DNA of 64,000 bases from an uncultured Eubacteriales bacterium. GTDB taxonomy: Bacteria; Bacillota; Clostridia; Christensenellales; UBA1242. Shown in pieces: positions 10,748 through 54,804 of the stretch. Numbering within the stretch: the first letter of the stretch is position 1; the number at the start of each line of letters is the position of its first letter. The position numbers and the translations under genes were made by a program. The notes under the pieces were generated by a model. It did not search any database. It was given only the letters and a program-made list of their open reading frames with translations, and was not told the DNA's origin. The stretch covers positions 25,877 to 89,876 of the forward strand of contig CAOQRA010000002.1 in NCBI GenBank assembly GCA_948512295.1, read 5' to 3'.

Positions 10748-10823
10748 GCTGCTGTGGCTCAGTTGGTAGAGCAGCTGATTCGTAATCAGCAGGTCGGCGG
10801 TCCGAGTCCGCTCAGCAGCTCCA
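10748..10823 (+). tRNA. tRNA-Thr (anticodon CGT)
   Basis: Hand-folded cloverleaf. Acceptor GCTGCTG/CAGCAGC, D arm GCTC-AGTTGGTA-GAGC, anticodon arm GCTGA-TTCGTAA-TCAGC, T arm GGCGG-TCCGAGT-CCGCT. Discriminator T and encoded CCA. Confidence 0.9.
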
Positions 10824-11903: not shown

Positions 11904-12248
11904 TCATTTTTTCATTTTTATAATTTGGCAAAGAGCTTCTTTTTCAGATTTTGACATGTTACGAATTAATTCCAAAAGTTCCTTATCTTCATCATATTTA
12001 GTTAAGTCATAATAAAACAACTCACTTGGAGTTATTTCTAACAAATCAATGAGGGCAAAAAGTGTTGTAGAATTTATATTGATATCACCAGCTTCAACTC
12101 TATAATACCAACTTTCGGTATATCCTAACCTTAAACTTACTTCCCTTGCCGATAAATTCCTTTTATTGCGAAAATAACCTAATCTATTAATAAGATCCTT
12201 TAACCCATTGTGATAGTCTAGTTCGGTTGTATGCTTCATATTTTTCAC
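11904..12248 (-). CDS. XRE-family helix-turn-helix regulator (candidate prophage repressor)
   Basis: HTH_XRE signature RNKRNLSAREVSLRLGYTESWYYRVEAGDININSTTLFALIDLLEITPSELF. Divergent from the + strand genes. Confidence 0.8.
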   Translation of the reverse strand: MKNMKHTTELDYHNGLKDLINRLGYFRNKRNLSAREVSLRLGYTESWYYRVEAGDININSTTLFALIDLLEITPSELFYYDLTKYDEDKELLELIRNMSKSEKEALCQIIKMKK

Positions 12249-12392
12249 CTCTTATTATATTTTAAAACGGCATACAAGTAGGTGGTTTTAATTTAATGTT
12301 GGTATTTTATAAAAATCTTTCATAAAATGTGGAATAATTTTTAATTTTATGTTATAATGCTTGTAAAATATAACATAAAAGGAAAAACTGCT

Positions 12393-12905
12393 ATGAAAAT
12401 TGCAATGGTTACAGGTCATAGACCAAAAGGGTTAAATAAAGTAATGAAGTACGGAGATTATGATGATATCCAATTTATGGAGTATGTAGAATCAATGGGT
12501 TACATTGTAGACAAACACCTAAGAGATGGCTACGATTTATTTATCAGCGGAGGAGCAATAGGTGTTGATTTAGACTTTGCAGAAATGGTGCAACATCTTC
12601 GTGGAACAAAGTATTCACATGTAAAGCTTGAAATTGCAATACCATGCGATAATCAAGATTTAAAATGGAGTCTAGACGATAAACAAAGATACAAAGAAAT
12701 CTTGGCTGATGCAGAAATTATAACTCAAGTTGGCCATAAATTTACATCTTGGTGCATGCAAAAACGAAATGAGTATATGGTAGATAAAGCAGATAAAGTC
12801 ATAGCATTTTGGAATGGAGAAGAACATGGCGGAACTTGGAACACAATTCAATATGCAAAAAAACGAGGCAAAGAGATAGAAATTATAGACTTGAGAAGTC
12901 TATAA
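12393..12905 (+). CDS. YpsA-like SLOG (DUF1273) family protein
   Basis: VTGHRP, ISGGAIGVDLDFAE and KRNEYMVDKADKVIAFWNGEEHGGT are colinear with the Bacillus YpsA architecture. Confidence 0.7.
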   Translation: MKIAMVTGHRPKGLNKVMKYGDYDDIQFMEYVESMGYIVDKHLRDGYDLFISGGAIGVDLDFAEMVQHLRGTKYSHVKLEIAIPCDNQDLKWSLDDKQRYKEILADAEIITQVGHKFTSWCMQKRNEYMVDKADKVIAFWNGEEHGGTWNTIQYAKKRGKEIEIIDLRSL

Positions 12906-12964
12906 GAAAGAAAACATTCCATTTTGGCTAAAAATGGTGTATGCTATTAATGGAGATTTTAATC

Positions 12965-13540
12965 ATGAAAAACTATAATGGACGAACTAGATGCCGTACG
13001 CAAGTACAGCTAGAAATGTCTGATCTAGTGACTAAAAAAGAGTCAGTAGCAGACAAAACAGCGACTGCACAAGGAGTCGCAAAGGCTAATCATAAGCCAT
13101 ACAAAGAAACCAATATTATAAAAGATGAGCAAGCAGAACTTGACTTGCCATTGCAAGTGCCGGAAGATTCTAGTGAATTGTTTGTCATAACTAAGGTAAA
13201 AAAATTGGCTGCCTATGTGATAACGGTTACAGAGAAATCACCTAAACGATTTCGTGCTGTTTTTGTCAATCGTATGCAAAACTATTGTCTTGACTGCCTA
13301 GAATATTTGATTGAAGCTAACAGCTTAAGATTAGATAACACGGAAAACATACGAAAACGAAAAGATTGTCAACACAATGCGTACATGAAACTTAAATTAT
13401 TAGGCTACATGTCATTTTTATCACTAGAAAGCGAATGCATATTGAAAAAACAATATGAACAGATATCATTGCAAGTGGCAGATAGCATAAATCTACTTGT
13501 CGCTTGGAGAAGAAGTGATGCCAATCGAATTGGCAAATAA
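12965..13540 (+). CDS. avd: DGR accessory variability determinant (Avd-like four-helix bundle) with an N-terminal extension
   Basis: C-terminal ~120 aa (KSPKRFRAVFVNRMQNYCLDCLEYLIEAN ... QISLQVADSINLLVAWRRS) matches the Avd / 23S-IVS-protein pattern. Sits directly upstream of TR. The start could also be 12941. Confidence 0.7.
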   Translation: MKNYNGRTRCRTQVQLEMSDLVTKKESVADKTATAQGVAKANHKPYKETNIIKDEQAELDLPLQVPEDSSELFVITKVKKLAAYVITVTEKSPKRFRAVFVNRMQNYCLDCLEYLIEANSLRLDNTENIRKRKDCQHNAYMKLKLLGYMSFLSLESECILKKQYEQISLQVADSINLLVAWRRSDANRIGK

Positions 13541-13597: not shown

Positions 13598-13702
13598 TTT
13601 GGCTGCGCTCGGCCTATTCTAAAAATAATGCTAACAAAATAAATTATGACGGCGACCTTAACAATAATAATGCTAACAAAACCGTCCTAGGCCTGTGTCC
13701 CG
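13598..13702 (+). repeat. DGR template repeat (TR)
   Basis: 105 nt, homologous to 15253-15356. Asn-rich (AAT/AAC) when read in the VR frame. 13 of 14 substitutions versus VR fall on its adenines. Confidence 0.85.
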
Positions 13703-13918
13703 ATTTGCCTTTGAAGAACAAACAAGGTTTGTTAAAAAACAACCAGAAGTGGTCAATATCAAGTGAATTGATCGAGTGTGTAAGGCAAAGGAATCTTACT
13801 CTTTTCTAGTAACTTACCTAAAGTACTAGAAGAAAACGACCATCTCGACAACCAACGCGAAAGTTTTGGAAGTTTACCGCAAGGGAGATGGTCAAATTTA
13901 ATAATACAAGGAGTGGCT

Positions 13919-14944
13919 ATGCTGAAAGAGGCTTTTACATTTGAAAAATTGCTAACTGCACATAAAAGATGCAGAAGATCTAAGCAACACAAGACAGAAA
14001 CCATTTCTTTTGAAATAAATTTATCTGCAACACTAGTAGAATTGTCAAAAAGGTTATTAAATATGACCTATAAACCGGGTAAGTATAAAGAATTTAAAAT
14101 TTTTGAACCAAAAGAGAGAACTATTGAAGCCTTATCATATAAAGACAGAGTTGTGCTAATGGCACTTTGCAGCAACATTATTGAACCGAAAGTCGAAAAA
14201 TACTTGATATTTGATAATGTAGCATGTAGAAAGAATAAAGGTACTCTTTTTGGTATAAAACGATTGGAAGGTTTTTTACATGATTATTATAGAAAATTTG
14301 GGCATAAAGGGTATTTTTTGAAATGCGATATAAAAAAATATTTTCAAAGCATTGATCACAACATGCTCATTGAAAAATTGAAAAAAACCGATTTAGATAA
14401 TGAAGACTTATTGATAATTAAAACTATTATTGACAGCAAGAATGCTGACAGCGGGGTAGGACTCCCTATCGGCAATCAAACAAGTCAATGGTTTGGTTTG
14501 TTTTACTTAAACACAATAGACAGACTTATAAAGGAAAAATTGCAAATAAAATATTATGTTCGCTATATGGATGATATGATATTAATTCACCACGATAAAG
14601 AATATTTAAAGTTTTGCAAAAAAGAAATACAAAGATGTGCTGAAAATGAGTTGCACCTTAAACTAAACAGTAAAACACAAATTGGAACACTTCAAAATGG
14701 AATAGATTTTCTGGGATTTCATCATACACTTTGCGAAACAGGAAAAGTAAAAAGGTTCTTAAGAGGGCAAGCAAAACTAAGAACAAGACGAAAAGTAAAA
14801 CATTTAGCACAATTAAAGAACTCAAAACTAATAACAAAAGATAAGTTAAATCAGAGATTAAATGCCTTGAAAGCGCATGTAATACATTCAAATGCTAAGA
14901 AATTTTACTTAAATTTAACATATAAATACCATTTGCCTAGTTAA
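13919..14944 (+). CDS. DGR-type reverse transcriptase
   Basis: RT motifs include the DGR hallmark LPIGNQTSQ and the catalytic YMDD (YVRYMDDMILIH). AAGGAG RBS. Confidence 0.9.
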   Translation: MLKEAFTFEKLLTAHKRCRRSKQHKTETISFEINLSATLVELSKRLLNMTYKPGKYKEFKIFEPKERTIEALSYKDRVVLMALCSNIIEPKVEKYLIFDNVACRKNKGTLFGIKRLEGFLHDYYRKFGHKGYFLKCDIKKYFQSIDHNMLIEKLKKTDLDNEDLLIIKTIIDSKNADSGVGLPIGNQTSQWFGLFYLNTIDRLIKEKLQIKYYVRYMDDMILIHHDKEYLKFCKKEIQRCAENELHLKLNSKTQIGTLQNGIDFLGFHHTLCETGKVKRFLRGQAKLRTRRKVKHLAQLKNSKLITKDKLNQRLNALKAHVIHSNAKKFYLNLTYKYHLPS

Positions 14945-14958
14945 TTTTTCAAAAAGTA

Positions 14959-14987
14959 TTGCAAAAATTGAAAAAATGTGTTATCAT
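14959..14987 (+). promoter_or_regulatory. Promoter of the VR-bearing gene
   Basis: TTGCAA (14959-14964), 17 nt, TATCAT (14982-14987), preceded by TG. Confidence 0.5.
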
Positions 14988-15017: not shown

Positions 15018-15344
15018 ATGAAATGGACAGATTTAGTAGAAAGAGTTCGAATATCAAACACAGATGAAGATCAAAATACTGGTAATTCATCATTTGATAC
15101 ACAAGATTATGTGTATTTGGACTCTCGTGATGAAGTTAAAAATTGGCAAGCCAATCAAAAGGCAGCAGCTATTACAGACTGGGCATTGATGAATGGCGGT
15201 TTTCACAAATGGGATAGAAAAGCACCAAATGGTGGAAGATGTGTCACCAGTATTTGGCTGCGCTCGGCCTATTCTAAAAGTAATGCTACCAAAGCGATTA
15301 TGACGGCGACCTTTTCACTCATTATGCTCACTAGACCGTCGTAG
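15018..15344 (+). CDS. DGR target module (C-type-lectin/FGE-like fold with VR), currently frameshifted at its 3' end
   Basis: ...DWALMNGG...GGRCVTSIWLRSAYS enters the VR. AGGAGG RBS. The tail after 15294 is out of frame relative to TR (see findings). Confidence 0.7.
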   Translation: MKWTDLVERVRISNTDEDQNTGNSSFDTQDYVYLDSRDEVKNWQANQKAAAITDWALMNGGFHKWDRKAPNGGRCVTSIWLRSAYSKSNATKAIMTATFSLIMLTRPS

Positions 15345-15356
15345 GCCTGTGTCCCG
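15253..15356 (+). repeat. DGR variable repeat (VR) with IMH-like 3' end
   Basis: 104 nt. Identical to TR except at 13 TR-adenine positions, a 1-nt gap and one C/G difference 16 nt from the 3' end. Confidence 0.85.
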
Positions 15357-15387
15357 CTTTACACCTTAATCTTTCATCTTTTCTCTC

Positions 15388-15400
15388 GGCGCGAAGCGCC
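15388..15400 (+). other. GC hairpin downstream of VR
   Basis: GGCGC-GAA-GCGCC, 32 nt past the VR end. Confidence 0.4.
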
Positions 15401-15469
15401 TCGCGTGATTTTGGAAAGGTTGGTGTTGTTAAAGCTAGCAACGGAGATATCATTTCCCACACGATTCAG

Positions 15470-17173
15470 ATGGGGGAATATCCTAAAACAAGAGTAGATT
15501 CAAGAGAAAGAGAAAAATTTGAACAACAATTAAAATCTGGTAAAATAAGAAAAACCGGAAAACAATATTCAGGCTATCGCAAAGATGATGGCTCTTTTGT
15601 CATGCATGATGAATATGAGATTGGTGGGCAAAAATATGTTCGTGTTTATACAAAGCGAGCAGAAGATGGAAACTACTATAACGATGGCACAAAGATGGCT
15701 GATTCTGGAACATGGGAATGGGTAAAAGTTGAACCTGTTGTTTGGCGTGTTAGAAACTGGGATGAACTACCAACTTCAATAAACCCAAAAGGAAATGGCA
15801 GGGCAAAATTTATTGATATTCGAAGCGAAGAAGCCATTATGAGCGGAATTCCATTCTATCCAGATTATGGAGATGATAGAGGTCGTGACACGATGTGGCA
15901 AAATAGTCCAATTCGTGCATTCTTTAATGGGTATGACCTACATAGAGAAATTGATCGTGGAAATGGAAATAAAAAATATAAAAACGAAGAAAGCTTTAAT
16001 TTTAGCGGAAAAGGATTGTTTTCTGAAATATTTGATGGGGCAGAATTATCTCAAACAGCACAAAATATTCAAGAACAAAATGAAGAATTTGAAGCCCCAA
16101 ATCCATATGGTTTCGTTTATGATGACCTAACAAACGATGAACTTTTGAAATTGTATATAAAATCAAATGCAAGCATCTTCTTGCATGGTCCTTCTGGTGT
16201 TGGTAAATCTGGACGAGTAAAACAAATTGATCCAACCGCAACAAGAATTACACTTCGTCCACAGATGAACCCAGAAGAAGTGGATGGAACTCTCGATAGA
16301 GAAACTGGACAATATATACCACCACTTTGGTATACACAACTATGTGAAAAATGTAAAGCAGAACCAGATAGAAAGCATGTATTGTTTATTGATGAGCTTA
16401 CAAATGTTAAACCAACAGTACAAAGTTTAATTTATTCAATAGTTTTAGATCGTGCAGGAAAAGACGGCTTGTGGCCACTTCCAGATAATGCTGTAGTAGT
16501 GGCGGCTGGAAACGAAAGTGCAGACAACCTAGCAGCTTATCCGCTGACAAATGCCTTGTTCAGAAGATTTAGTCATATTTATTATGAAGTAGATAAACAA
16601 TCATGGCTTGACTGGGCAACTGGAATAAGCAAAGTAACAAAGCAAGAACATGTAGAGCATGACAAAACTCCAAGAGCAAGAATTCATCCTGCAATAGTTG
16701 CGTTTGTAATGAGTAGAGATGACGGAATCTTGAACCAAGAACTTGACGAAGAAAACCCACACATCGTTACAGACCCTCGTAAATGGGAAATTGCAAGTCA
16801 GGTGTTATATTCAACAAAGAATCCAAAGGCTCTTGCGCCTGCAATCGGTGAAGAACTTACTGCAGACTTTACTGATTTTGTGCAAAATATTCAATTGTCA
16901 GTAGAAGATGTGGTTAAAGGAAGATATAACGAAAGAGATTTCGTAGAAATGGCAATAGACAGAAAGTTGTCAACCCTTCTTGGGCTAGTGACAGCGGACG
17001 AAAAGAACCTTGGCGTTGTTCGTGGATTTATACAAGAACACCTCGGAAAAGAGATTTTAGCAACTTACGATTCACTTTGGATAAGAAACGATCCAGAAAG
17101 AGCGCAAATAATTGCTGAAACACCAATTCAATTTTTAGATGAGGAGGCCATAAATGGAAAAGCTTTTGAATAA
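15470..17173 (+). CDS. MoxR-like AAA+ ATPase (AAA_5 type) with an N-terminal beta-rich module
   Basis: Walker A LHGPSGVGKS, Walker B HVLFIDELTN, sensor VVVAAGNE, NALFRRFSHI. No SD before ATG 15470, and the frame is open upstream to 15335. Confidence 0.8.
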   Translation: MGEYPKTRVDSREREKFEQQLKSGKIRKTGKQYSGYRKDDGSFVMHDEYEIGGQKYVRVYTKRAEDGNYYNDGTKMADSGTWEWVKVEPVVWRVRNWDELPTSINPKGNGRAKFIDIRSEEAIMSGIPFYPDYGDDRGRDTMWQNSPIRAFFNGYDLHREIDRGNGNKKYKNEESFNFSGKGLFSEIFDGAELSQTAQNIQEQNEEFEAPNPYGFVYDDLTNDELLKLYIKSNASIFLHGPSGVGKSGRVKQIDPTATRITLRPQMNPEEVDGTLDRETGQYIPPLWYTQLCEKCKAEPDRKHVLFIDELTNVKPTVQSLIYSIVLDRAGKDGLWPLPDNAVVVAAGNESADNLAAYPLTNALFRRFSHIYYEVDKQSWLDWATGISKVTKQEHVEHDKTPRARIHPAIVAFVMSRDDGILNQELDEENPHIVTDPRKWEIASQVLYSTKNPKALAPAIGEELTADFTDFVQNIQLSVEDVVKGRYNERDFVEMAIDRKLSTLLGLVTADEKNLGVVRGFIQEHLGKEILATYDSLWIRNDPERAQIIAETPIQFLDEEAINGKAFE

Positions 17174-17534
17174 AATAGAAAAATTGTCCGCAGTATCGCC
17201 AGTCCTCGTAACGGGGATAAAGAAGGAGTGTTTTAAAAATGCAGAGATTCTGCCAGCAAATATTGCTTCTAAAGATTTGGGCATTGTAAATACAAGCAAA
17301 GGACTAAAAGCACCTAAGTGGTTTGTGCGTGTTATGAAAGATGATATTAGCACCATAGTCATAGACGGAATTGACAGCATTGACACCGAGTCTCAAGAAA
17401 AATTTTATGAGTTATTAAAATATAAGACAATTTCAAGCATTGAGTTTTATAAAGAAATAAAAATAGTAGTTTTGTACGAAGATTTGAAAAAAGTATCTCC
17501 TAGCATATTAAGTCTTTGCCAAATCATGAAGTAG
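17154..17534 (+). CDS. Small protein with degenerate P-loop-like motifs
   Basis: AGGAGG RBS; overlaps the upstream stop by 20 nt. VLVTGIKKEC and TIVIDGIDSI...QEKFYELLK resemble decayed Walker A/B and lid elements. Confidence 0.55.
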   Translation: MEKLLNKIEKLSAVSPVLVTGIKKECFKNAEILPANIASKDLGIVNTSKGLKAPKWFVRVMKDDISTIVIDGIDSIDTESQEKFYELLKYKTISSIEFYKEIKIVVLYEDLKKVSPSILSLCQIMK

Positions 17535-17541
17535 GTGCGAA

Positions 17542-19047
17542 ATGGCAGAATTCGATCTTACAACAATAAAAAGAAAGATGCTTAGAAAATACCCAGCGTT
17601 TGGGTCTACTATTTCATCCGTAAAATATCAAATTGTCGGAAACAACCATCCGGTAAAAACTGCTGCAACAGATGGCAAAACTATTTATTGCAACGAAACA
17701 TACCTTGGAACATTATCAGAAGATCAGCAAGTGTTTGTCTTTGCACATGAAGTTTGTCATATTGCATTAAATCATATTATGCGTAGCGAAGGAAAAGATC
17801 CAGAACTTTGGAATATAGCCACAGATGCAGTTATTAATGAACATTTGCAAAAAGATGGCTTGCCAATGGTTGAGGGCGGTGTGGATATTAAAGGCGCACT
17901 CAAATACGATGCCGAAGAACTATACCAAAAATTGCTTGCAGAAAAGCAAAAACAACAAGCAGAGCAGAATCAGCAACAGCAAGGAAGTTCTGCTGAGCAA
18001 AAACAAGAGCAGCAAGGACAAAACGGACAACAGCAGAACCAACAACAAGGGCAAGGACAAGGTTCTGGTTCAAGCGAACAAGATAAGCAAGAATCTGGGC
18101 AAGATCAATCTCAGCAAAATAGCCAAGGTCAAGGACAAGGAAACTCTGAAGAAACTGGAGAGTCAAGTTCACAAGGTGCTGGTGGAAACGGCGAAGAACA
18201 AGAGAATCACGATGTTGGACATGACGCTCACTCTCTTTGGGAAGAAGCTATAAAAGAGGCAAAAGAAGAAAAAGAGAAGAAACAAGGAAAAGGCAAAGGA
18301 CAAGAAAAACAAGATGAGTCCCAAGATGAAGCCGAGCAAGAAGTAATTTCTGAAAAAGAAGCCTTTGAAAAGAATGATGAAGAAAAGATTAAGCGTGCCG
18401 AAGAAATTATGAGCAAACTATCTACAGGTCGTAGAGGTGTAGGTGGAAGTTCTCAAGAAGTTTATTTTGATGATATTGGAAAAGCTGGGAAGGCTGTGGT
18501 CAACTGGAAAAAACTTTTACAAAGAACTCTAGAATTTGAAGATGAAACATGGGGGCATAAATTCTCAGATAGATCCAACGGCTATGCCGCAAGAATTGAA
18601 GATGTGGAATATGACGAACAAGCAGAATCTGAAATAATTTTGGACACAAGCGGATCTGTCAGCGTTGGGCTATTAAAGAGTTTCTTAAGACAAGTAAAAA
18701 CAATACTGAAAAACTCTTGTATTAGAGTTGGTACTTTCTCAGATAGTTTCCATGGCTTTGTGGAGATAAAAAAAGAGTCCGATATTGACAATTTGAGAAT
18801 AAGAGTCGGTGGTGGAACAAACTTTGATGCCGCAAGTCGTGCATTTTCAAAACGCAAAGATGTGAATAGAATTTGCTTTACAGACGGACAAGATGGTGGC
18901 GATGCTGAGATAAGAGAAAAACGAAAAGACATAGTTTGGATTAGTTTTGAAAATCCAGATTTCAAGCCAGATGATGGAAAAGTTATCTTTGTTCCGGCTA
19001 GCCAAATTCAAGAATTCAAAGTTCAAGAAGAAGAAAGAGAATTATAA
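17542..19047 (+). CDS. Metallopeptidase-like (HExxH) plus vWA domain protein, DUF2201-type
   Basis: N-terminal FAHEVCHIALNH...ATDAVINE. ~130-aa Q/G/S/E low-complexity linker. C-terminal vWA with MIDAS ILDTSGSVS. Confidence 0.8.
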   Translation: MAEFDLTTIKRKMLRKYPAFGSTISSVKYQIVGNNHPVKTAATDGKTIYCNETYLGTLSEDQQVFVFAHEVCHIALNHIMRSEGKDPELWNIATDAVINEHLQKDGLPMVEGGVDIKGALKYDAEELYQKLLAEKQKQQAEQNQQQQGSSAEQKQEQQGQNGQQQNQQQGQGQGSGSSEQDKQESGQDQSQQNSQGQGQGNSEETGESSSQGAGGNGEEQENHDVGHDAHSLWEEAIKEAKEEKEKKQGKGKGQEKQDESQDEAEQEVISEKEAFEKNDEEKIKRAEEIMSKLSTGRRGVGGSSQEVYFDDIGKAGKAVVNWKKLLQRTLEFEDETWGHKFSDRSNGYAARIEDVEYDEQAESEIILDTSGSVSVGLLKSFLRQVKTILKNSCIRVGTFSDSFHGFVEIKKESDIDNLRIRVGGGTNFDAASRAFSKRKDVNRICFTDGQDGGDAEIREKRKDIVWISFENPDFKPDDGKVIFVPASQIQEFKVQEEEREL

Positions 19048-19052
19048 ATATT

Positions 19053-19082
19053 AAGACCTATGGTAGAACATAGGTCTTTTTT
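19053..19082 (+). terminator. Rho-independent terminator ending the DGR/ATPase/vWA operon
   Basis: AAGACCTATG-gtagaa-CATAGGTCTT followed by a T-run. Confidence 0.75.
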
Positions 19083-19126
19083 ATAACAAAAATTGGGAAC
19101 GCGCAAGGTGAAAATAATACATTGGT

Positions 19127-19398: not shown

Positions 19399-19659
19399 AT
19401 GAATGAAAATCAAAGATACCAGATAAGAAGAACAACCGTGGATGCATACATTTTGTATTGCTTGATGGACGGTAAAATTCACAAACGAGAAGAGCTTGCG
19501 AGTAGAGCAGATATTTCCACAAGATCAGTTCAACGGAGTATTGAAAGGCTGGGCGTTTACTTTATTATACATACATTCCGTGGCGGTGAAACTAAAGGTG
19601 GAATTTATTTGGACGAGCGTTTCATTTACTCCGACAGAACAAAAGAGATAGAAAGATAA
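19399..19659 (+). CDS. Winged-helix DNA-binding protein (paralogue 1)
   Basis: DGKIHKREELASRADISTRSVQRSIERL ... FRGGETKGGIYLDE. GGGGG RBS. Confidence 0.7.
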   Translation: MNENQRYQIRRTTVDAYILYCLMDGKIHKREELASRADISTRSVQRSIERLGVYFIIHTFRGGETKGGIYLDERFIYSDRTKEIER

Positions 19660-19667
19660 AGAACAAA

Positions 19668-19697
19668 GGACGAAGAAAAAAGGCTTCGTCCTTTTTT
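19668..19697 (+). terminator. Rho-independent terminator
   Basis: GGACGAAG ... CTTCGTCC followed by T6. Confidence 0.7.
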
Positions 19698-19835: not shown

Positions 19836-20198
19836 ATGGATTTGCGACGTGCAAGCATTACAGCAGACATACTGAATGTGCTGACTGACGGCAAAATTCA
19901 CAAGATGCGTGAAATCGCAGAAATCGTTGAAGTCAGCGAAACGACAGTACGCAATCACATAAGATCGTTGTCCTACCGCTACCCAATAGAAACTTTCCGT
20001 GGTGGCGAAAAAAAGGGCGGTGTTTATTTAGAAAAAGACTACATCATCAGTGGTCACATTTTCACCAAAGCCGAACTACAATTCGGTGCAAAGGTTTTTG
20101 CTTCACTAAGCAGAGCCGAACTGGATGAAGATGAACAAAAGGTTCTGGACACTTTTATTCGAATATTCGCAGCTCACACAGAAAAGGAGATTTTATGA
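19836..20198 (+). CDS. Winged-helix DNA-binding protein (paralogue 2)
   Basis: DGKIHKMREIAEIVEVSETTVRNHIRSL ... FRGGEKKGGVYLEKD, colinear with the 19399 ORF. Confidence 0.7.
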   Translation: MDLRRASITADILNVLTDGKIHKMREIAEIVEVSETTVRNHIRSLSYRYPIETFRGGEKKGGVYLEKDYIISGHIFTKAELQFGAKVFASLSRAELDEDEQKVLDTFIRIFAAHTEKEIL

Positions 20199-25546: not shown

Positions 25547-26068
25547 TTGCGAGTGGAAGAATACTTATTGCACAAAGTGGTCTTTACCGAAGAAGCGATT
25601 TTCGATTATGAGCATTGCCTTGTAAAGCAAAAGTATGAACTAGACGAAACTGACACCGACTGGCGAATTGAAAGCAAGTTCGACCTTCCACTCGTGAAAC
25701 TTCCAAAGCGAGAGATGAAAGCAGAAATTGAAGAGTTTATTCAAACCAATAAAAGTAAACAACACAAACTTTATTTTTACACAAAGATTTTTGACGAACA
25801 ACTCCAAAAGATGCTCATGTTGTTTATAAAAAAGGGGAGCAGACAGTCAATCATGCAGAACTGGATCGTTATTGGAATTTGCGAAGCTGACGATTGGTGT
25901 GAAGAATTGGAATTTGCTGGAATGATTCGAAACTGGACAAAAACAAGCATAACAGACCTACCGGAAGACGACTGGGTGGAAGAAGAACGCATAAGAAAAG
26001 AAATCGAAGAAAAGGAGCGATTGAAAGAAGAAAAGGAGCGAGAATACTATGAAAGATTATTTGCTTGA
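25547..26068 (+). CDS. Hypothetical protein with an acidic/E-rich tail
   Basis: ORF with a GGAG RBS; non-ATG start according to the track. Confidence 0.5.
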   Translation: MRVEEYLLHKVVFTEEAIFDYEHCLVKQKYELDETDTDWRIESKFDLPLVKLPKREMKAEIEEFIQTNKSKQHKLYFYTKIFDEQLQKMLMLFIKKGSRQSIMQNWIVIGICEADDWCEELEFAGMIRNWTKTSITDLPEDDWVEEERIRKEIEEKERLKEEKEREYYERLFA

Positions 26069-27055: not shown

Positions 27056-27544
27056 ATGCCAAGCGGTGGATACAGAGCGGGTGCTGGACGCCCCAAAAAG
27101 AGTGCAACAGAAAAAGTTTTGGAAGGAAACCTTGGGAAAAGAAAAATTGAAGTTGTTGACTTCTCAGATGCAGAAGAACTGCCAGCAACACCAGCGAAAT
27201 GGTTGAGTGATAAAGGCAAAGAAATGTACAAGTTCGTTTATGAGTGGCTACAAAAGATTGGTTGCTTAAAAGGAATATTGCCTTGCCATTTGGAAGAATA
27301 CGCACACTGCAAATCTCGCTGGCTAGAATGTGAAGAGCAAAACAGCAGAATCGGTTTAATCGTAAAAGACCAACATGGAAACCCGGCACCTTCGCCATTC
27401 GTTGGACTGGCTCACAATTATCTCAAACAAGCAAATGATGCGTGGGCAAAGATTTACGCAGTGGTGAGAGAAACAAAACTCAAAGAGTGGGATGACTCAA
27501 ATCCAAATGACGACGTCATGGAAAAACTGCTTGGGGGAAAGTGA
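27056..27544 (+). CDS. terS: Terminase small subunit (P27 family)
   Basis: MPSGGYRAGAGRPKKS N-terminus and ...HCKSRWLECEEQ core are typical of P27-type TerS. AAGGAG RBS. Confidence 0.85.
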   Translation: MPSGGYRAGAGRPKKSATEKVLEGNLGKRKIEVVDFSDAEELPATPAKWLSDKGKEMYKFVYEWLQKIGCLKGILPCHLEEYAHCKSRWLECEEQNSRIGLIVKDQHGNPAPSPFVGLAHNYLKQANDAWAKIYAVVRETKLKEWDDSNPNDDVMEKLLGGK

Positions 27545-29106
27545 TGTTAAGGGTTATTGAATTATTCAGTGGCGTAGGAAGTCAAACACAAGCATTGAAG
27601 AACATTGGTGTGGAACACAAGGTCGTTGCAATTTGTGACAACGACAAATTTGCAGACATGACATACCGAGCATTGCACGATGCAGATGTGGTAAACCTTG
27701 GCGACATAAGGAAAGTGGAAGAGTTGCCGGAAGCGGACTTGTGGACTTACTCATTCCCTTGCCAAGACATAAGCGTTGCCGGAAATCAAAAAGGCTTTGA
27801 CAAGGACAGCAATACAAGAAGCGGACTGCTTTGGGAAGTGGAGCGACTGCTACTACGAGCCAAGGAAAAAGGAACTTTACCCAAATACCTACTGTTGGAA
27901 AATGTGAAAAACTTAGTAGGAATAAGGCACAAAGCGAACTACGAAAAGTGGCTCGCTTTTTTACATGATTTAGGCTATACAACATTTTGGAAAGTGCTGA
28001 ATGCCAAAGATTATGGAATCCCACAAAACAGAGAAAGAGTGTTTGCAATCAGCATACTTGGAGAATGTGAGAGATATGAATTTCCTAAACCAATGAAACT
28101 TGAAACAAGGCTCAAAGATGTGCTGGAAGACGAAGTCGACAAAAAATACTATTTGAAAGAATCGACAATGCGGAGCATGCTGACAAGCAGTTTCAAAAAC
28201 AGAAAGAACTCTGTGTACACACCGGATGCAAGCCACACTGGTGCATTGCTGAGCAGAGATTACAAAGAGCCAAAATGCGTTGTGGTTGGAAACATTGAAC
28301 AGGGCAAGTGGGGAAAAGTCACTGAGATGCATCAGAGAGTTTATAGTCCAGAAGGAATTGCACCAACCATCACAGCACAAGGTGGCGGAAATCAAGAAAA
28401 GAAAATCGTTGTGGATGACGAACCGAAAGCACAAGTTGTTGGAATGATGGAAGGCGGCAAGTGGGATAGGGTTTATAATCTCAGCCGTTGCGTTTACGAT
28501 CCAGAGGGCATTGCACCGACACTGGTGGCAGCAGCTGGAGAGGGCGGAAACAACACAAAGAAAATCATTGTTGATGACTTATATGCAAACAGAGAAAAGC
28601 GAACATACGAAGAAGTTGCTCCAACACTAAGGGGCGAAAGACACGGATTAAAGGTTGTGGCACTTCGTGGCAGACCGCCGGAAGATGGACACAAGAACCT
28701 AGAACAACAAGCCGAAATACGAAAAGATTACCTAACAAACACTATCACAACCGTGCAAAAAGACAATTTAATTTTGCAGGTGAAGTCTGGAAGAAAGAAA
28801 GGATACGAAGAAGCAACGGATGGAGATTCCATAAACCTTGCGTTTCCGAATAGCAAAACACGAAGAGGGAGAGTTGGAAAACAGATTTCTAACACGATTG
28901 ACACCGGTTGTCAGCAAGGGGTTTTGTTAAATTGCACCATAAGAAAACTAACACCAACCGAATGTTGGCGACTTATGGGGTGGAAAGACGAGCAGATAAA
29001 CAAGGTAAAACAAGCCGGAATAAGCAATTCCCAAATGTATAAACAAGCCGGTAATGGAATTGTTGTGGCGGTTTTGGAAGCTATATTCCGGAATTTGCCC
29101 ATTTGA
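27541..29106 (+). CDS. DNA (cytosine-5)-methyltransferase with a duplicated variable region
   Basis: Motif I ELFSGVGSQ, motif IV FPCQDIS, motif VI ENV, motif VIII QNRERVF, C-terminal GNG. At 521 aa it is larger than typical enzymes. Confidence 0.9.
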   Translation: MMLRVIELFSGVGSQTQALKNIGVEHKVVAICDNDKFADMTYRALHDADVVNLGDIRKVEELPEADLWTYSFPCQDISVAGNQKGFDKDSNTRSGLLWEVERLLLRAKEKGTLPKYLLLENVKNLVGIRHKANYEKWLAFLHDLGYTTFWKVLNAKDYGIPQNRERVFAISILGECERYEFPKPMKLETRLKDVLEDEVDKKYYLKESTMRSMLTSSFKNRKNSVYTPDASHTGALLSRDYKEPKCVVVGNIEQGKWGKVTEMHQRVYSPEGIAPTITAQGGGNQEKKIVVDDEPKAQVVGMMEGGKWDRVYNLSRCVYDPEGIAPTLVAAAGEGGNNTKKIIVDDLYANREKRTYEEVAPTLRGERHGLKVVALRGRPPEDGHKNLEQQAEIRKDYLTNTITTVQKDNLILQVKSGRKKGYEEATDGDSINLAFPNSKTRRGRVGKQISNTIDTGCQQGVLLNCTIRKLTPTECWRLMGWKDEQINKVKQAGISNSQMYKQAGNGIVVAVLEAIFRNLPI

Positions 29107-32531: not shown

Positions 32532-33896
32532 TTGAAATTTCAAAAATTCAAAGTTGAAGAATTAAAACCGGCAACATACAATCCAAGAAAGGAACTGAAA
32601 CCGGGAGATACAGAGTTTGAAAAACTACGAAAGAGTATTGAAGAGTTTGGCTATGTTGAGCCAATAATTGTGAACATAAGGAACATGACAGTTGTTGGCG
32701 GACATCAAAGACTTGGAGTTATGAAACACCTTGGAATAACCGAAGTAGACTGCGTTGTTGTTGACATTGATGACAACAAAGAGAAAGCACTCAATGTCGC
32801 ACTAAACAAAATAAGCGGCGAGTGTGATGATGAGAAATTGGCGGACTTGCTCAAGGAATTACAATTGAGTGGATACGACACATCGTTGACTGGTTTCGAA
32901 ATAAGGGAAATTGACGAATTATTCAGTGGCACGGTTTATGATGTAAAAGAAGATAACTTTGACACAGAACAAGAACTAGGGCAAATTGACAAGCCTTTCA
33001 CGCAACAGGGCGACCTTTGGCATCTCGGCAGACATAAACTCCTTTGTGGCGATTCGACCGCAGAAGGCGATATTTCAAGGCTTTTTGAAGACAAGGTCGC
33101 AGACTTGGTTGTGACAGATCCACCATATAATATTGACTATGGCACAGCAGAGCAAGATAGAAACGAATATAGGGGAATTGAAAGAGCCGAAAGGTCAATC
33201 CTAAATGACAATATGAGCGATGAATCATTCCACCAATTCTTGCTAAACTTTTACAAGAACACCTACAGCAAGACTAAGGGTGGCGGTGTCATTTATGTTT
33301 TCCACAGCACAAAAGAATCTGTGAACTTCATAAAGGCTCTGAGAGAAGCTGGCTACAAACTCAGTCAAACACTTATATGGGTGAAAGACCATTTCACACT
33401 TGGTCGCTCAGATTACCAATGGCAATTTGAACCAATCCTATATGGTTGGAGAGAAGACAAACCGCATTATTTCATCCATGACCGTACACAGTCAAGTGTA
33501 TTTGAAAATAAGGAAGAGTTGGCAAAGAAAAAGAAAGAAGAACTGCTAAAAATTCTCAATGAGATTTACGAGCATTATCCAAGCGACATTGTTCGTGATA
33601 GCAAACCCTTAAGAAACGCAGAGCATCCAACGATGAAACCTATCACTCTTTGTGCGAAACTTATTCAAAACAGCAGTAGGGAGCAAGAAATCGTATATGA
33701 TGCGTTCGCCGGAAGCGGTTCGACACTTATGGCTTGCCAACAGATGAACCGAACTTCATATAACATTGAACTGGCAGAAAACTATTGCGATGTCATTGTA
33801 AAGCGATATGCAAAGATGTTTGGAGATGAAGAAATCTACTTGGAGAGAGATGGCAAAAGGCAACCTTTAAGACTGACAAAATTGAGCATAGAATAG
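32532..33896 (+). CDS. ParB-like nuclease domain fused to an N6-adenine/N4-cytosine DNA methyltransferase
   Basis: ParB-N (ELKPATYNPRK, VVGGHQRL). MTase motif IV DPPYNIDY and motif I FAGSGSTLMA (beta-class order). TTG start after AGGAG. Confidence 0.85.
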   Translation: MKFQKFKVEELKPATYNPRKELKPGDTEFEKLRKSIEEFGYVEPIIVNIRNMTVVGGHQRLGVMKHLGITEVDCVVVDIDDNKEKALNVALNKISGECDDEKLADLLKELQLSGYDTSLTGFEIREIDELFSGTVYDVKEDNFDTEQELGQIDKPFTQQGDLWHLGRHKLLCGDSTAEGDISRLFEDKVADLVVTDPPYNIDYGTAEQDRNEYRGIERAERSILNDNMSDESFHQFLLNFYKNTYSKTKGGGVIYVFHSTKESVNFIKALREAGYKLSQTLIWVKDHFTLGRSDYQWQFEPILYGWREDKPHYFIHDRTQSSVFENKEELAKKKKEELLKILNEIYEHYPSDIVRDSKPLRNAEHPTMKPITLCAKLIQNSSREQEIVYDAFAGSGSTLMACQQMNRTSYNIELAENYCDVIVKRYAKMFGDEEIYLERDGKRQPLRLTKLSIE

Positions 33897-51761: not shown

Positions 51762-53249
51762 ATGAAAAGAATAATCATACACACGGCAACGCAAACAGAA
51801 ATAGTTCCGGTGTGTGCTTATGCCAGAGTTTCAACCGACAAAGACGAGCAAGAAGAAAGTTATTATGTTCAAGAAAGTTATTGGACGAACAAACTGCTTG
51901 CCGAGCCTTTATATCACTTTATAGGCATGTTCGGTGACGAAGCTGTGTCAGGAGCAACGCAACGGAAACGCAGAGGTTTCCTAGAAATGATTAAACTTTG
52001 CAGAATGGGGAGAATCAAAAAGATTTTCACCAAAAGCGTTGCAAGATTTGGAAGAAATTCAAATGAAACTTTGAAAACAATCAAAGAACTACGAGAAATC
52101 GGTGTAACAGTGTATTTTGAGTCAGACGAAATCGACACCTCACAACTGACAGATGAATTGATGCTCAGATTGAAATCAATCCTTGCTGAAGAAGAACTGA
52201 AAACCATGAGTAATAATGTGAAATGGAGCGCTAGAAAGCGATTCAGCGAGGGGAGCATCGAATTAGTAAACCTTTATGGTTACAACATAATTCGAGAAAA
52301 TAAGAGAGTTCGTTTGACAGTAAATGAAGAAGAAGCGAAAGTGGTGCGAAGAATTTTTCAAATGTACTTGGACGGAATGGGAATTCAAAGAATCGCAAAC
52401 ATCCTAACCGATGAAAACATTCCCACTAAGAAAAATAGTTTGGGCTGGTGTAGAAGTCAAGTTGCTGGCATGCTCAAGCAAGAGAAATACATTGGAGATG
52501 CTTTGCTACAAAAGAACTACACAGATGGACACGGAAAGATGATAGGGAACAAGGGTGAACTTATGCAGTTCTATGTAGAGAACGACCATGAGCCAATTAT
52601 TGACAAAGAAACATTCAATAAAGTGCAAGCAGAGATGGCTTATAGAGCCACGATAATACAAACTGACACTGTCAAAAAGTTTACAGAGTTCTCTGGGAAA
52701 ATTGAGTGTGGTCACTGCGGAAAACACTATGGAAGAAAAATCAATAGCAAAATAAGAAACTTTGGCAATGCCGGGTGGATATGTAGAACGGCAAACACAA
52801 GGGGTATGGCGGCATGCCCATCAAATACGATAAATGAAGATTTGCTAAAAGCGATAACTGTGGATGCATACAACGAGTATTTGGCAACACCAAAAGAAAA
52901 TGATAACACAGCGAGCATAGAGCAAGAAATTGCTGAACTTGTAACACAAGAAAACAAAGTTCGACAGTTGTGGCAAGATGGGAAAATTTCATACTCAGCA
53001 TTCACAAACGCACAAAAGGAACTCAAAGATAGGTACAAGGACTGCGATGACAGAATTGTACAAGAGCAAGGATTTGAGTTATACGCCAAGGAGGGGAAAG
53101 TTGCTGACAGTTACGATCCACAGATAGTGGAAAAGCACATTGAGAAAATAATAATAAACGGCTTCAAAATAAGGTTCGTTTTCAAGAATAAACAAGAAAT
53201 TGAAAAGGGGTGGAAATATGAGCATAGAAGATATTGCAAAGCCTACTAA
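51762..53249 (+). CDS. Large serine recombinase 1
   Basis: Resolvase catalytic domain (CAYARVSTDKDEQ), recombinase domain, zinc ribbon (CGHCGKHYGRK...CPS) and coiled-coil tail. Confidence 0.9.
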   Translation: MKRIIIHTATQTEIVPVCAYARVSTDKDEQEESYYVQESYWTNKLLAEPLYHFIGMFGDEAVSGATQRKRRGFLEMIKLCRMGRIKKIFTKSVARFGRNSNETLKTIKELREIGVTVYFESDEIDTSQLTDELMLRLKSILAEEELKTMSNNVKWSARKRFSEGSIELVNLYGYNIIRENKRVRLTVNEEEAKVVRRIFQMYLDGMGIQRIANILTDENIPTKKNSLGWCRSQVAGMLKQEKYIGDALLQKNYTDGHGKMIGNKGELMQFYVENDHEPIIDKETFNKVQAEMAYRATIIQTDTVKKFTEFSGKIECGHCGKHYGRKINSKIRNFGNAGWICRTANTRGMAACPSNTINEDLLKAITVDAYNEYLATPKENDNTASIEQEIAELVTQENKVRQLWQDGKISYSAFTNAQKELKDRYKDCDDRIVQEQGFELYAKEGKVADSYDPQIVEKHIEKIIINGFKIRFVFKNKQEIEKGWKYEHRRYCKAY

Positions 53250-54804
53250 TGAAAGAACTATTCGAGCGATTCCAGCACTTCAAGTTGCAAGGAATAATGC
53301 GATAAGACCAGTTAGGGAAGCCGCCTATGCTCGTGTTTCGACCAAAACTGAAGAACAACTGACCAGTTATAAGCTGCAAAAGAAATACTATGAAGAATAT
53401 ATAAAGTCAAAGACCAACACAATTTATGCTGGATTATATTGCGATGAAGAAAGCGGAAAAAGCATAAGCGGAAGAAAGGGGTTCAAGGACTTATTGAGCG
53501 ATTGTAGAGAGGGGAAAATAGACCGAATAATAACAAAGACAGTGAGCCGTTTTGCAAGAAACATGGTGGAATGCATGCAGACTGCTAGAGAACTGAAAAA
53601 CCGTGGCATAACGATATACTTTGAAAGTCAAGGACTAGACACTAAAGACGAGAGTTCATTCGTTATCCTAAGCATATTGGCAGCACTTGCAGAAGAAGAA
53701 ATCCGAACAATTTCAAACAATGTGAAATGGGGTATCCACAAACGATACAAAGAGGGCAAAGTTCACATGAGTGGACGAATGTGCGGATATGAAATCAAGG
53801 GTGGGAAGTTTAGGATAGTGCCGGAAGAGGTGGACACTGTGAAAATGATTTTCAACGATTTCCTTGCTGGCATGACAATAAGGCAAATTGCCAATAAACT
53901 GGAACAACAAGGAATACCATCACCAAGAGGGCATGATAAATGGCAACACACAACAATCCAGAGCATGCTACAGAACGAAAAGTATGTCGGCGATGTTATA
54001 TTGCAGAAAACATTCAAAGTCGATGTGCTAAGTCCAAGACAAGTAAATAACGGTCAAAGAGATAAGTACGAAATAAAAAATAACCATCCGGCAATTATTG
54101 ACAGAGAAATATTCGAAGCTGTGCAAGCAGAATTAAATAGGCGAGAATATGAAAAGATAACACTAGACAGCGAGCGAACACGATATTCGAGTCATTACCC
54201 ATTAAGCACAAAACTTGAATGCGGAGAGTGCGGAACTAAGTTCAGAAGACACAGCCAGCAACATGGAGAAAAGAAAGTTGATATTTGGGTATGCTTGAAA
54301 CACCAAAAACAAAGCGATGAATGCCACATGAAACCAATCAAAGAAAGGGTGGTTGAAGATGCATTCGTGCAAGTTCTAAACGAACTGGTTGCGGACAAGC
54401 AAAGAATTATTGACAATCTTGAGAGAAGTGTGAGGGCTATAATAACAAGCAATCCGATAAAGGACATAAGAGAAATTGAAAACAACTTGATAAGCATTGA
54501 AAGACAAATGATACAAATCAGTACACGCAGTCCGATGACACCTCAAGACCAAGTCGAGATGCAACAACTACAACAAAGAGCAACAGCACTGAGAGAAGAA
54601 ATAACCATTGCAGAGCGACTTAGAGGATCACATGATATGCTAAAACAAAGAGTGAGAGAAATCAGTCAAGTTATAAGATTACCGTATATGCAATACCGTG
54701 GCGACCTATTCCGTAGCCTTGTTGAGAAGGTAGTTATAAACGGAAAGAAAGACCTAAAATTTATCTTTAAATGCGGAATCGAAATGGAATGCCAAGTTGC
54801 ATAA
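53218..54804 (+). CDS. Large serine recombinase 2
   Basis: AAYARVSTKTEEQ catalytic Ser, recombinase domain, zinc ribbon (CGECGTKFRRHS...WVCLKH) and coiled coil. Overlaps the end of gene 1. Confidence 0.9.
   Translation: MSIEDIAKPTNERTIRAIPALQVARNNAIRPVREAAYARVSTKTEEQLTSYKLQKKYYEEYIKSKTNTIYAGLYCDEESGKSISGRKGFKDLLSDCREGKIDRIITKTVSRFARNMVECMQTARELKNRGITIYFESQGLDTKDESSFVILSILAALAEEEIRTISNNVKWGIHKRYKEGKVHMSGRMCGYEIKGGKFRIVPEEVDTVKMIFNDFLAGMTIRQIANKLEQQGIPSPRGHDKWQHTTIQSMLQNEKYVGDVILQKTFKVDVLSPRQVNNGQRDKYEIKNNHPAIIDREIFEAVQAELNRREYEKITLDSERTRYSSHYPLSTKLECGECGTKFRRHSQQHGEKKVDIWVCLKHQKQSDECHMKPIKERVVEDAFVQVLNELVADKQRIIDNLERSVRAIITSNPIKDIREIENNLISIERQMIQISTRSPMTPQDQVEMQQLQQRATALREEITIAERLRGSHDMLKQRVREISQVIRLPYMQYRGDLFRSLVEKVVINGKKDLKFIFKCGIEMECQVA

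Follow-up and report, generated by a model that had tools for sequence, protein, structure and literature searches.

The 64,000-nt stretch analyzed here (the window; positions 25,877 to 89,876 of contig CAOQRA010000002.1, assembly GCA_948512295.1, from an uncultured Eubacteriales bacterium) contains, between 12.9 and 19.1 kb, a complete diversity-generating retroelement (DGR) composed of an Avd gene, a template repeat (TR), a reverse transcriptase (RT) gene, a variable repeat (VR) and a 3' hairpin. The DGR is real, is active in nature and is directed at a 718-aa gene which fuses a DUF6273-like recognition module to a MoxR-class AAA+ ATPase; genes for a 126-aa protein and for a DUF2201 protein, with metallopeptidase and von Willebrand factor A (vWA) domains, follow. 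In a survey of one genome per GTDB species, which yielded 79 loci with relatives of the fusion, the cassette RT-[VR::ATPase]-small-vWA recurs in 21, mostly outside prophages. The cassette is well supported as an entity and is broader than its prophage setting, and its function we infer. We propose a reader-motor-effector device, in which a recognition domain that the DGR can retarget feeds a MoxR/vWA-metallopeptidase machine used in genetic conflict, and judge this proposal to be about evenly poised between right and wrong.

A diversity-generating retroelement directed at the 718-aa gene

Over 109 nt the TR and VR differ by 14 substitutions, all of which fall at TR adenines (spanning 13625–13703), by a single C>G change near the 3' end, where TR and VR classically diverge, and by a 1-nt deletion. 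In the frame of the target the TR is rich in AAY codons and possesses three AAA codons; the VR, read in the frame of the TR, specifies WLRSAYSKSNATK-DYDGDLFTHYAH*TVVGLCPALHLNL, the asterisk being a TAG derived from a TR AAA codon. The RT carries the IGxxxSQ motif that marks DGR RTs (Table 1), and is at most 42.5% identical to any RT of GenBank phages. Neither a second VR nor a further copy of the TR/VR repeat was found in the 64-kb window. Its sole VR lies inside the cytoplasmic-type ATPase fusion, in agreement with the initial annotation, which had noted that the tail module carries none.

The TR is identical in loci L001, L090 and L092. The 12 full-length members of the target's 90% cluster, which are otherwise near-identical, carry 11 VR alleles, and 19 of the 22 positions that vary among these 718-aa proteins fall in residues 85–111; approximately 19 codons of the N-terminal DUF6273-like domain are rewritten by the DGR. 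Downstream of the VR lies a hairpin with a 5-bp GC stem and a GAA loop, which is conserved, with covariation in the stem (GGCGC, CACGC, CGCGC, CGCAC and TGCCC), in 12 related DGR-positive loci. A hairpin of comparable kind is needed for retrohoming in phage BPP-1 (PMC3240598); the stem in the window is shorter than the 7–10 bp given in that paper, and the loop is one base smaller than the GRNA loop given there. Here the hairpin is also coding sequence, specifying the strongly conserved peptide ARSAS, and since it sits inside the reading frame part of this conservation at the protein level may reflect a constraint on DNA structure. The adenine-specific changes, the 11 alleles and the covarying hairpin are the grounds on which we take the DGR to be genuine, to act in nature and to target this gene.

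The window allele is interrupted. Its VR holds two lesions, a 1-nt deletion (one T) after 15294 and an in-frame TAG at 15332–15334 replacing a TR AAA. Past the VR the same frame remains open for 45 codons, leading straight into a 567-aa open reading frame (ORF) whose ATG at 15470 has no Shine-Dalgarno sequence before it. When both lesions are repaired in silico a 718-aa fusion results; this product, already foreseen in the initial annotation, is borne out by an intact, 98% identical protein (P0001) from the same prophage in another assembly. The alternative that the target is the 108-aa ORF alone, with the ATPase as a separate gene, was rejected because of the intact 718-aa homologs, the open frame from 15335 to 15470 and the lack of a ribosome-binding site at 15470.

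The TAG is probably genuine, since it is also present in a second assembly (L092), the VR of which has a different 5' half and no deletion. The deletion may likewise be genuine, or a mixed VR population may have produced it as an artefact of the consensus, since a metagenome assembly of the same prophage (L090) has a run of Ns, a scaffold gap, at the 5' edge of its VR (~2250–2260), where assemblers break. L090 was rejected as an OFF allele for the same reason, its apparent truncation being the scaffold gap. More generally, assemblers break on the hypervariable VR and yield false calls of split genes. The VRs of the window and of L092 share an identical 3' half, including the TAG (15295–15345), whereas their 5' halves are different. 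Retrohoming presumably begins at the 3' end, which would predict the opposite pattern of sharing; allelic recombination, partial events or a chimeric consensus could each account for what is seen.

Were all TR adenines randomised, about 13% of retrohoming events would by computation give a stop, given the three AAA codons, so that OFF alleles are to be expected as a by-product; with TR and RT intact, such an allele is reversible by the next retrohoming event. The window copy is either in an OFF state, with a stop and a frameshift in its VR, or a mis-assembled VR. A more drastic explanation is that the gene is dead in this genome, the DGR having made a stop and an indel, the 567-aa ORF not being produced and the locus having no current function. 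The two lesions, the recurrence of the TAG in L092, the missing Shine-Dalgarno sequence and the calculated frequency of stops would all fit, but we think this very unlikely: the RT is intact, the TR is the same as in copies with ON alleles, a further retrohoming event can restore the frame, the target gene outside the VR is identical to intact alleles and shows no decay, and the L090 gap leaves the deletion open to being an artefact.

Recognition module, motor and partner proteins

The four modules that had been annotated for this gene set, namely a VR-bearing module, an ATPase, a small protein and a DUF2201 protein, were confirmed by Pfam, PHROG and alignments. The 718-aa protein consists of a DUF6273-like VR subdomain (residues 1–120), a beta-rich domain (130–340), a disordered linker (342–358) and the AAA+ ATPase (~370–718). 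The 108-aa ORF of the window matches Pfam DUF6273 at profile positions 55–144 (E-value=1.4e-4, 22.2 bits), just below the cut-off of 23.5 bits because its VR is frameshifted. Residues 1–120 of its relatives score above that cut-off (26–39 bits, positions 55–171), and the VR lies at the C-terminal end of the domain. Gut-phage DGRs are known to target DUF6273, a C-type-lectin-like (CLec) domain (PMC11792537; bioRxiv 10.1101/2024.10.15.618418). The beta-rich domain matched no known family.

Because Foldseek searches with the full-length AlphaFold model (predicted local distance difference test score, pLDDT, of 81) gave AAA+ matches only, the N-terminal module was modelled on its own. The first 340 residues form one rigid unit (pLDDT 91.6, predicted template-modelling score 0.90), and the linker at 342–358 has a pLDDT below 50 in the full-length model. 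In BFVD the best match of the N-terminal model was a phage DUF6273 protein, a weak one (E-value=7e-4; template-modelling score 0.23–0.29).

The whole 340-aa module is common, with 273 representatives at E ≤ 1e-30 in an exhaustive profile search. It occurs alone, on MoxR ATPases, or with other C-termini such as a BspA-type leucine-rich repeat (LRR) and an unknown domain. Since it recurs whole, alone and in other fusions, we dropped the ideas that the N-terminal region is a circular permutation or the remnant halves of two DUF6273 repeats. Conversely, the same ATPase lineage bears other N-termini, among them WG repeats, 33-aa repeats and duplicated modules; judged from these sequences, the recognition end is modular and is exchanged among motors. 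In two proteins (P0197 and P0207) the 340-aa VR-type module, including the hairpin peptide ISARSAS, is fused to BspA-type LRRs and a C-terminal region of ~600 aa without a family, and stand-alone forms are ~350 aa long. These proteins point to a wider family of 'binder plus variable output' proteins.

The ATPase portion has a Pfam AAA_5 match below the cut-off (E-value=7e-4, 20 bits; cut-off 22), AAA_5 being recorded for many of its homologs too, and matches PHROG 1297 ('ATPase') with an E-value of 9e-39. It displays a Walker A motif (GPSGVGKS), a Walker B DE, a sensor-1 asparagine (N499) and the arginine R517 in an RRF motif. Across an alignment of 40 sequences G391, G394, G396, K397, E460 and N499 are invariant, and D459 and R517 are kept in at least 90%. 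The solved folds closest to the full-length model are NorQ/NorQD, CbbQ and RavA, which places the motor in the MoxR class; McrB was also matched. Full-length homologs of the target number in the hundreds, at 38–98% identity.

The 126-aa protein, which had been annotated as having decayed Walker-like motifs, has 29 database relatives, all of the same size. No match to it was found in Pfam, PHROG, PADLOC or NCBIfam, and a profile search of PDB sequences revealed nothing credible. Its profile aligns weakly to the ATPase core, from a PEEV-G motif via Walker B to the sensor-1 strand (hhalign E-value=1.2e-4, probability 55%), which agrees with the earlier description; a Walker A motif and the catalytic glutamate are absent. 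The designation 'degenerate P-loop protein' is, on this alignment, reasonable but no more than moderately supported.

The 501-aa ORF matches Pfam DUF2201_N (E-value=3e-31) and DUF2201 (E-value=2e-10), and PHROG 1314 (E-value=3e-59). All the parts that had been read from it were found: an N-terminal zincin-type metallopeptidase domain (HEVCH...H), a low-complexity linker and a C-terminal vWA domain with a metal-ion-dependent adhesion site (MIDAS; DTSGS...TDG). The residues H69, E70, H73 and H78 of the former and D368, S370, G371, S372, T447, D448 and G449 of the latter are invariant in eight DUF2201 relatives, including a protein of an N4-like phage. The linker between peptidase and vWA domain, rich in Q, E, G, K and S, is ~200 aa long in the window protein and varies in length among relatives. 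The peptidase also has a weak SprT-like match in Pfam. The ATPase, 126-aa and DUF2201 proteins belong to no NCBIfam family. The target, 126-aa and DUF2201 proteins have no hydrophobic segment and no signal-like N-terminus, and all appear to be cytoplasmic.

Distribution of the cassette and its prophage setting

Nearly all of the 79 loci belong to assemblies of uncultured gut Clostridia, Christensenella-like or Eubacteriales bacteria, or to those of gut Alphaproteobacteria. A DGR RT gene lies immediately 5' of the target in 19 of the 62 loci whose upstream flank is 3 kb or longer, and a DUF2201 gene lies 3' in 43 of the 64 with 3 kb or more downstream. Where an RT is present and both flanks suffice, the DUF2201 gene is found without exception (12/12), which bears out the suggestion that the four genes form a conserved unit. 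At least nine further loci show a TR-VR pair at the same position in the gene (~200–330 nt in), with at least 83% of the mismatches at TR adenines. Between the two main lineages of the cassette the RT (67% identity) and the N-terminal module (53%) are conserved above the ATPase (31%) and the vWA protein (36%), from which it appears that DGR and binder were grafted onto different motor/partner pairs. In one lineage a conserved gene of ~280 aa, without a family, follows the DUF2201 gene (L002, 14307–15176; L086, 14006–14845; L024, 14305–15174); the window lacks it, and in that lineage it might serve as a fourth component.

Some loci lack the DGR. At L006 one protein bears two N-terminal modules. 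At L004 (2782–11587) three tandem MoxR-like ATPases (704, 506 and 847 aa, one with two ATPase domains) have N-termini of ~33-aa repeats and are followed by a small protein and a DUF2201 protein. Next to them is a type I restriction-modification system, accompanied by SMODS and DUF6602 genes. The array may stand in for a DGR, with diversity at the recognition end encoded in the germline.

The settings of the cassette are varied. At L088 it lies in a prophage-like early region with Bro-N, helix-turn-helix (HTH) and YpsA genes; at L002, on a small integrative element with a MobL relaxase, an excisionase and an integrase; and at L086, in the chromosome between rpoC and recJ. The flanks of the 21 DGR-positive loci, screened with Pfam and PADLOC, hold mainly housekeeping genes, a few integrases and relaxases, and one pair of type III restriction-modification loci. 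The idea of a prophage-specific unit, with which the initial annotation began, therefore did not hold: most copies lie between housekeeping genes or on small integrative elements.

These settings bear on the possibility that the cassette is a chaperone for assembly of the virion or particle, in which the DGR would vary a structural interaction. Such a role has been proposed for the related gene pair of jumbo phages (PMC7824862) and shown for tail development in an archaeal virus, and the PHROG families concerned are common to virulent phages. It is nonetheless highly improbable for this cassette, since there are loci without phage genes; in addition, the window cassette is far from the structural module, and hypervariability is ill-suited to a fixed client. 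The rpoC-recJ insertion, the MobL integrative element and the housekeeping flanks speak against a virion function.

In the window (Table 1) the surrounding prophage extends from 10.9 to 55 kb, in the order tRNA-Thr, methyltransferases, terminase, portal, capsid, tape-measure, tail-fibre and two large serine recombinases. From the divergent XRE repressor gene to the terminator the genes are tightly packed and confined to the plus strand. The target, 126-aa and DUF2201 genes are separated by a 20-nt overlap and an 8-nt gap, after which comes the terminator hairpin; the tight, co-directional and terminated gene set of the initial annotation was thereby confirmed. The cassette sits on the lytic strand, flanked by the immunity region and the replication genes, and is far from the structural module; 30 kb separate the target gene from the tail-fibre gene. 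A promoter-like site and a terminator of its own suggest that the target gene is expressed autonomously, in the manner of a moron.

Table 1. Features of the DGR cassette and adjoining region in the window.
Feature	Position	Strand	Evidence or remark
tRNA-Thr, left edge of prophage	10748–10823		
XRE repressor gene	11904–12248	minus	divergently transcribed
YpsA/SLOG-family gene, directly 5' of Avd	12357–12905	+	Pfam YpsA, E 5.8e-20
Avd-like DGR accessory protein, 199 aa, with N-terminal extension	12941–13540	+	PHROG 3206, E 3e-16; NCBIfam DivGenRetAVD, E 6e-9; Pfam bAvd, E 8e-4
TR, non-coding repeat	13598–13706	+	TR/VR comparison
DGR RT, 343 aa, IGNQTSQ motif	13913–14944	+	PHROG 1423, E 7e-104; RVT_1, E 1e-16; motif read from translation
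Promoter-like site TTGCAA, 17 nt, TG-n-TATCAT, just 5' of target gene	14959–14987	+	consensus match only
DGR target gene, 718-aa fusion, interrupted inside VR in the window	15018–17173	+	108-aa ORF 15018–15344 plus 567-aa ORF 15470–17173
VR	15253–15360	+	236–343 nt into the 718-aa gene
GC-rich hairpin GGCGC-GAA-GCGCC, inside ORF	15388–15400	+	28 nt 3' of VR; encodes peptide ARSA
126-aa protein, degenerate AAA+-like core without Walker A	17154–17534	+	20-nt overlap with stop of ATPase gene
DUF2201 protein, 501 aa: metallopeptidase, linker, vWA	17542–19047	+	starts 8 nt past 126-aa ORF
Intrinsic-terminator-like hairpin, 10-bp stem (19053–19078), then T run; end of operon	19053–19086	+	confirmed

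The YpsA/SLOG gene is outside the core and may travel with the cassette: it is also found 5' of Avd at L088 (6794–7351), where the cassette is only 38–39% identical. It could be a DGR accessory factor that has escaped recognition, or an early gene that moves together with the cassette. Just past the cassette lie genes for two paralogous small HTH_11-like proteins (19399–19659 and 19836–20198), which form separate units with a terminator (19665–19694) between them and are probably early prophage regulators. A C5 cytosine DNA methyltransferase (27541–29106) and a fusion of a ParB N-terminal domain to an N6-N4 DNA methyltransferase (32532–33896) are encoded 5' of the terminase gene, both probably anti-restriction functions. 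The right end of the prophage has two tandem, overlapping genes for large serine recombinases with Resolvase, Recombinase and Zn_ribbon_recom domains (51762–53249 and 53200–54804).

Among phages, a megablast search of GenBank phages with 12.3–19.1 kb found nothing, a tblastn search of them with the N-terminal module found no relative, and three pattern scans of IMG/VR yielded no relatives of the fusion. The view of the cassette as typically phage-borne was dropped for this reason. The ATPase family, in forms that lack the N-terminal module, and the DUF2201 family occur widely among lytic N4-like, rV5-like and jumbo phages, with 526 GenBank phage records matched by the ATPase and 387 by the vWA protein. 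Acinetobacter phage XC38, which is N4-like, has the same order of ATPase, ~135-aa ORF and DUF2201 protein, beside a helicase gene; its middle ORF has no detectable homology to the 126-aa protein. The trio of ATPase, small and vWA genes also occurs without a DGR in bacteria. Occurrence of the ATPase/vWA pair without a DGR had been named in advance as damaging to the proposal of a DGR-wired sensor if the pair also had a known, unrelated function; the pair was indeed found in this form, in bacteria and in lytic N4-like phages, and no such function was found with it.

Perhaps the trio is an early phage function, such as removal of host proteins from DNA (by a SprT/Wss1-like protease with an AAA+ partner) or neutralisation of host defences, and the DGR adaptor was gained to track variable host targets. 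The breadth of the trio among N4-like, rV5-like and jumbo phages, the helicase gene beside it in XC38, the place of the window cassette between immunity and replication genes on the lytic strand, and the weak SprT-like match all agree with a role on the phage side. We regard it as unlikely, because most DGR-bearing copies are outside recognisable phages, neither IMG/VR nor GenBank phages yielded a relative of the fusion, and the promoter-like site and terminator suggest moron-like expression.

Proposed mechanism and relation to known systems

In the device that we propose, the hypervariable module would be a re-targetable ligand binder, most plausibly for a variable cytoplasmic protein, carried on a flexible linker with one copy per protomer of the ATPase ring. 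The vWA partner would dock on the ring via its MIDAS, as NorD does on NorQ and CbbO on CbbQ, and docking would place the HExxH peptidase beside whatever the binder holds. Hydrolysis of ATP would then remodel the bound cytoplasmic protein, exposing it to cleavage. The layout would resemble that of McrBC, with the difference that the reader is reprogrammed by hypermutation. The arena would be genetic conflict: a chromosomal cassette would recognise proteins of invading phages or mobile elements, and a prophage-borne one those of competing phages or of host defences. The initial annotation had put forward a sensor that gates a protease output, with superinfection exclusion among its possible uses; both that gating and that role are hypothetical.

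A fuller version of this device, which is possible but which we hold doubtful, is a programmable intracellular 'antibody-plus-degrader'. The DGR would supply a repertoire of binders, six per AAA+ ring; a captured invader protein (for a prophage, a host-defence protein) would be passed to the ring-bound zinc peptidase for ATP-dependent destruction; and stops in the VR would switch the system between OFF and ON. If true, this would be the first case in which targeted hypermutation retargets an unfoldase/protease, and it would represent anticipatory immunity, of a kind separate from CRISPR and from the DGR-linked vWA-MoxR (VMAP) systems compared below, in gut bacteria that are not multicellular and in their mobile elements.

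Several observations weigh against the reader-motor-effector device. MoxR ATPases are usually maturation chaperones for specific complexes and not degraders, and the occurrence of the binder-less trio in lytic phages implies that its core function can do without variable recognition. The window allele, moreover, is broken. We infer the ligand, the peptidase activity and the three-protein complex, and the binding surface of the VR domain is taken by analogy. A Foldseek search of the PDB with the N-terminal model gave nothing significant (best E-value=0.11) and listed no CLec protein, so that 'lectin-like' stands here as a family-level assignment; of the 'lectin/FGE-like' module in the initial annotation, the DUF6273 match supports the family, and a significant match to a solved structure did not emerge. 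PADLOC v2 gave no meaningful match for the ATPase, 126-aa and DUF2201 proteins, and only generic RT models for the RT. No convincing signal of a defence island or of a prophage was detected by Pfam and PADLOC in the flanks of the 21 DGR-positive loci, so that context does not settle who benefits. Restriction-modification neighbours were confined to type III at two related loci and to type I with SMODS at one DGR-less locus.

The effector might also be released rather than aimed. As a sensor-triggered switch of the VMAP type, the VR domain would only detect the invader, and the MoxR ring would remodel the vWA protein and release or activate the peptidase to act on host targets, with abortive infection or arrested growth as the outcome. 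DGR-linked MoxR-vWA systems have been modelled in this way in the literature (PMC7159879, PMC10907252); the long disordered linker between peptidase and vWA domain suits an autoinhibited, releasable effector, and one DGR-less relative adjoins type I restriction-modification and SMODS genes. We regard the switch as the main rival reading, possible but doubtful, for the third gene encodes a 126-aa AAA-like fragment that does not look VMAP-like in size or architecture, the CLec-like domain sits on the motor and not on the vWA protein, PADLOC gave no match, and the retention of the same trio by lytic phages would be odd for a suicide module.

DGR targets are mostly regarded as surface or virion receptor-binding proteins, the known exceptions being putative antigen sensors in multicellular cyanobacteria and purple sulfur bacteria. 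The present family shows a hypervariable domain wired straight to an enzymatic motor, in ordinary gut anaerobes and their mobile elements. Its natural series of VR alleles is already visible in metagenomes, and the compact operon of ~6 kb lends itself to testing whether bacteria use anticipatory hypermutation in intracellular recognition. The cassette may also help to assign a function to the widespread, uncharacterised MoxR/DUF2201 module of phages and, if the mechanism holds, would provide a scaffold, ready-made in nature, on which binders linked to an output could be evolved.

Among described systems, the ATPase folds closest to the motor are those of NorQ-NorD, CbbQ-CbbO and RavA-ViaA, which likewise pair the ATPase with a vWA partner that has a MIDAS. 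Those, however, are maturation or activation chaperones for one fixed client; they lack a variable binder at the N-terminus, and their vWA partners carry no peptidase. McrBC is an analogy only, with a variable N-terminal recognition domain on an AAA+ ring and a separately encoded effector; we claim homology for the AAA+ fold alone, and McrB reads modified DNA, hydrolyses GTP and works with a nuclease effector.

With the classical phage DGRs (BPP-1 Mtd and the DUF6273 targets of gut phages; PMC11792537, PMC10743442) the window element shares the Avd-TR-RT arrangement, adenine mutagenesis, a 3' GC hairpin and a VR at the C-terminal end of DUF6273. It differs in that the target is no virion receptor-binding protein, the VR is internal, in the N-terminal part of a long enzyme of the cytoplasm, and the hairpin forms part of the coding sequence. 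'Quimbyviridae' have been reported to carry phage DGRs whose targets are non-structural and defence-like. DGR targets of candidate phyla radiation (CPR) bacteria in the UVR4 class have a Midasin-like AAA domain (Wu et al. 2018, PMC5758913) and so resemble our target in possessing a MoxR/Midasin-related ATPase; compared by description, they have an unclassified type of VR, belong to another phylum and have no vWA/peptidase partner described.

The pair of MoxR AAA+ ATPase and metallopeptidase-vWA protein has been noted in jumbo phages, with a role in assembly proposed (Iyer et al. 2021, PMC7824862). The phage pair corresponds to PHROG 1297 and PHROG 1314 in the same order, with an ORF of ~130 aa between them and with HExxH and MIDAS kept. 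The phage ATPases are, however, ~340 aa long, without the 340-aa N-terminal module and without a DGR, and the middle ORF is not detectably homologous.

Closest in concept are the VMAP ternary conflict systems (Kaur et al. 2020, PMC7159879; Dore et al. 2024, PMC10907252), which occur in multicellular bacteria, among them cyanobacteria and Chromatiales. As here, a DGR-diversified lectin-type domain occurs in a cytoplasmic MoxR and vWA module with a peptidase, and sensing of invaders has been proposed. In VMAP systems the variable CLec or FGS domain is on the vWA protein or on a separate sensor, whereas in our cassette the VR is in the ATPase gene, at the N-terminus of the motor, and the vWA domain is joined to the metallopeptidase, a zincin (DUF2201) unlike the VMAP peptidases. 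As third component, VMAP systems have a large VMAP protein that carries trypsin, caspase, TIR or comparable effectors, and our cassette has a 126-aa degenerate AAA-like protein; and the hosts are multicellular bacteria in the one case, and gut Clostridia and Alphaproteobacteria assemblies, with a prophage and small integrative elements among the carriers, in the other. In the searchable literature we found no description of a VR module fused to a MoxR ATPase, nor of a DGR linked to DUF2201. The initial annotation had proposed a new system. Since DGR-linked MoxR-vWA conflict systems and the phage MoxR/peptidase-vWA pair were already described, what stands of that proposal is a new architecture, with the VR on the motor itself, within a category that was known.

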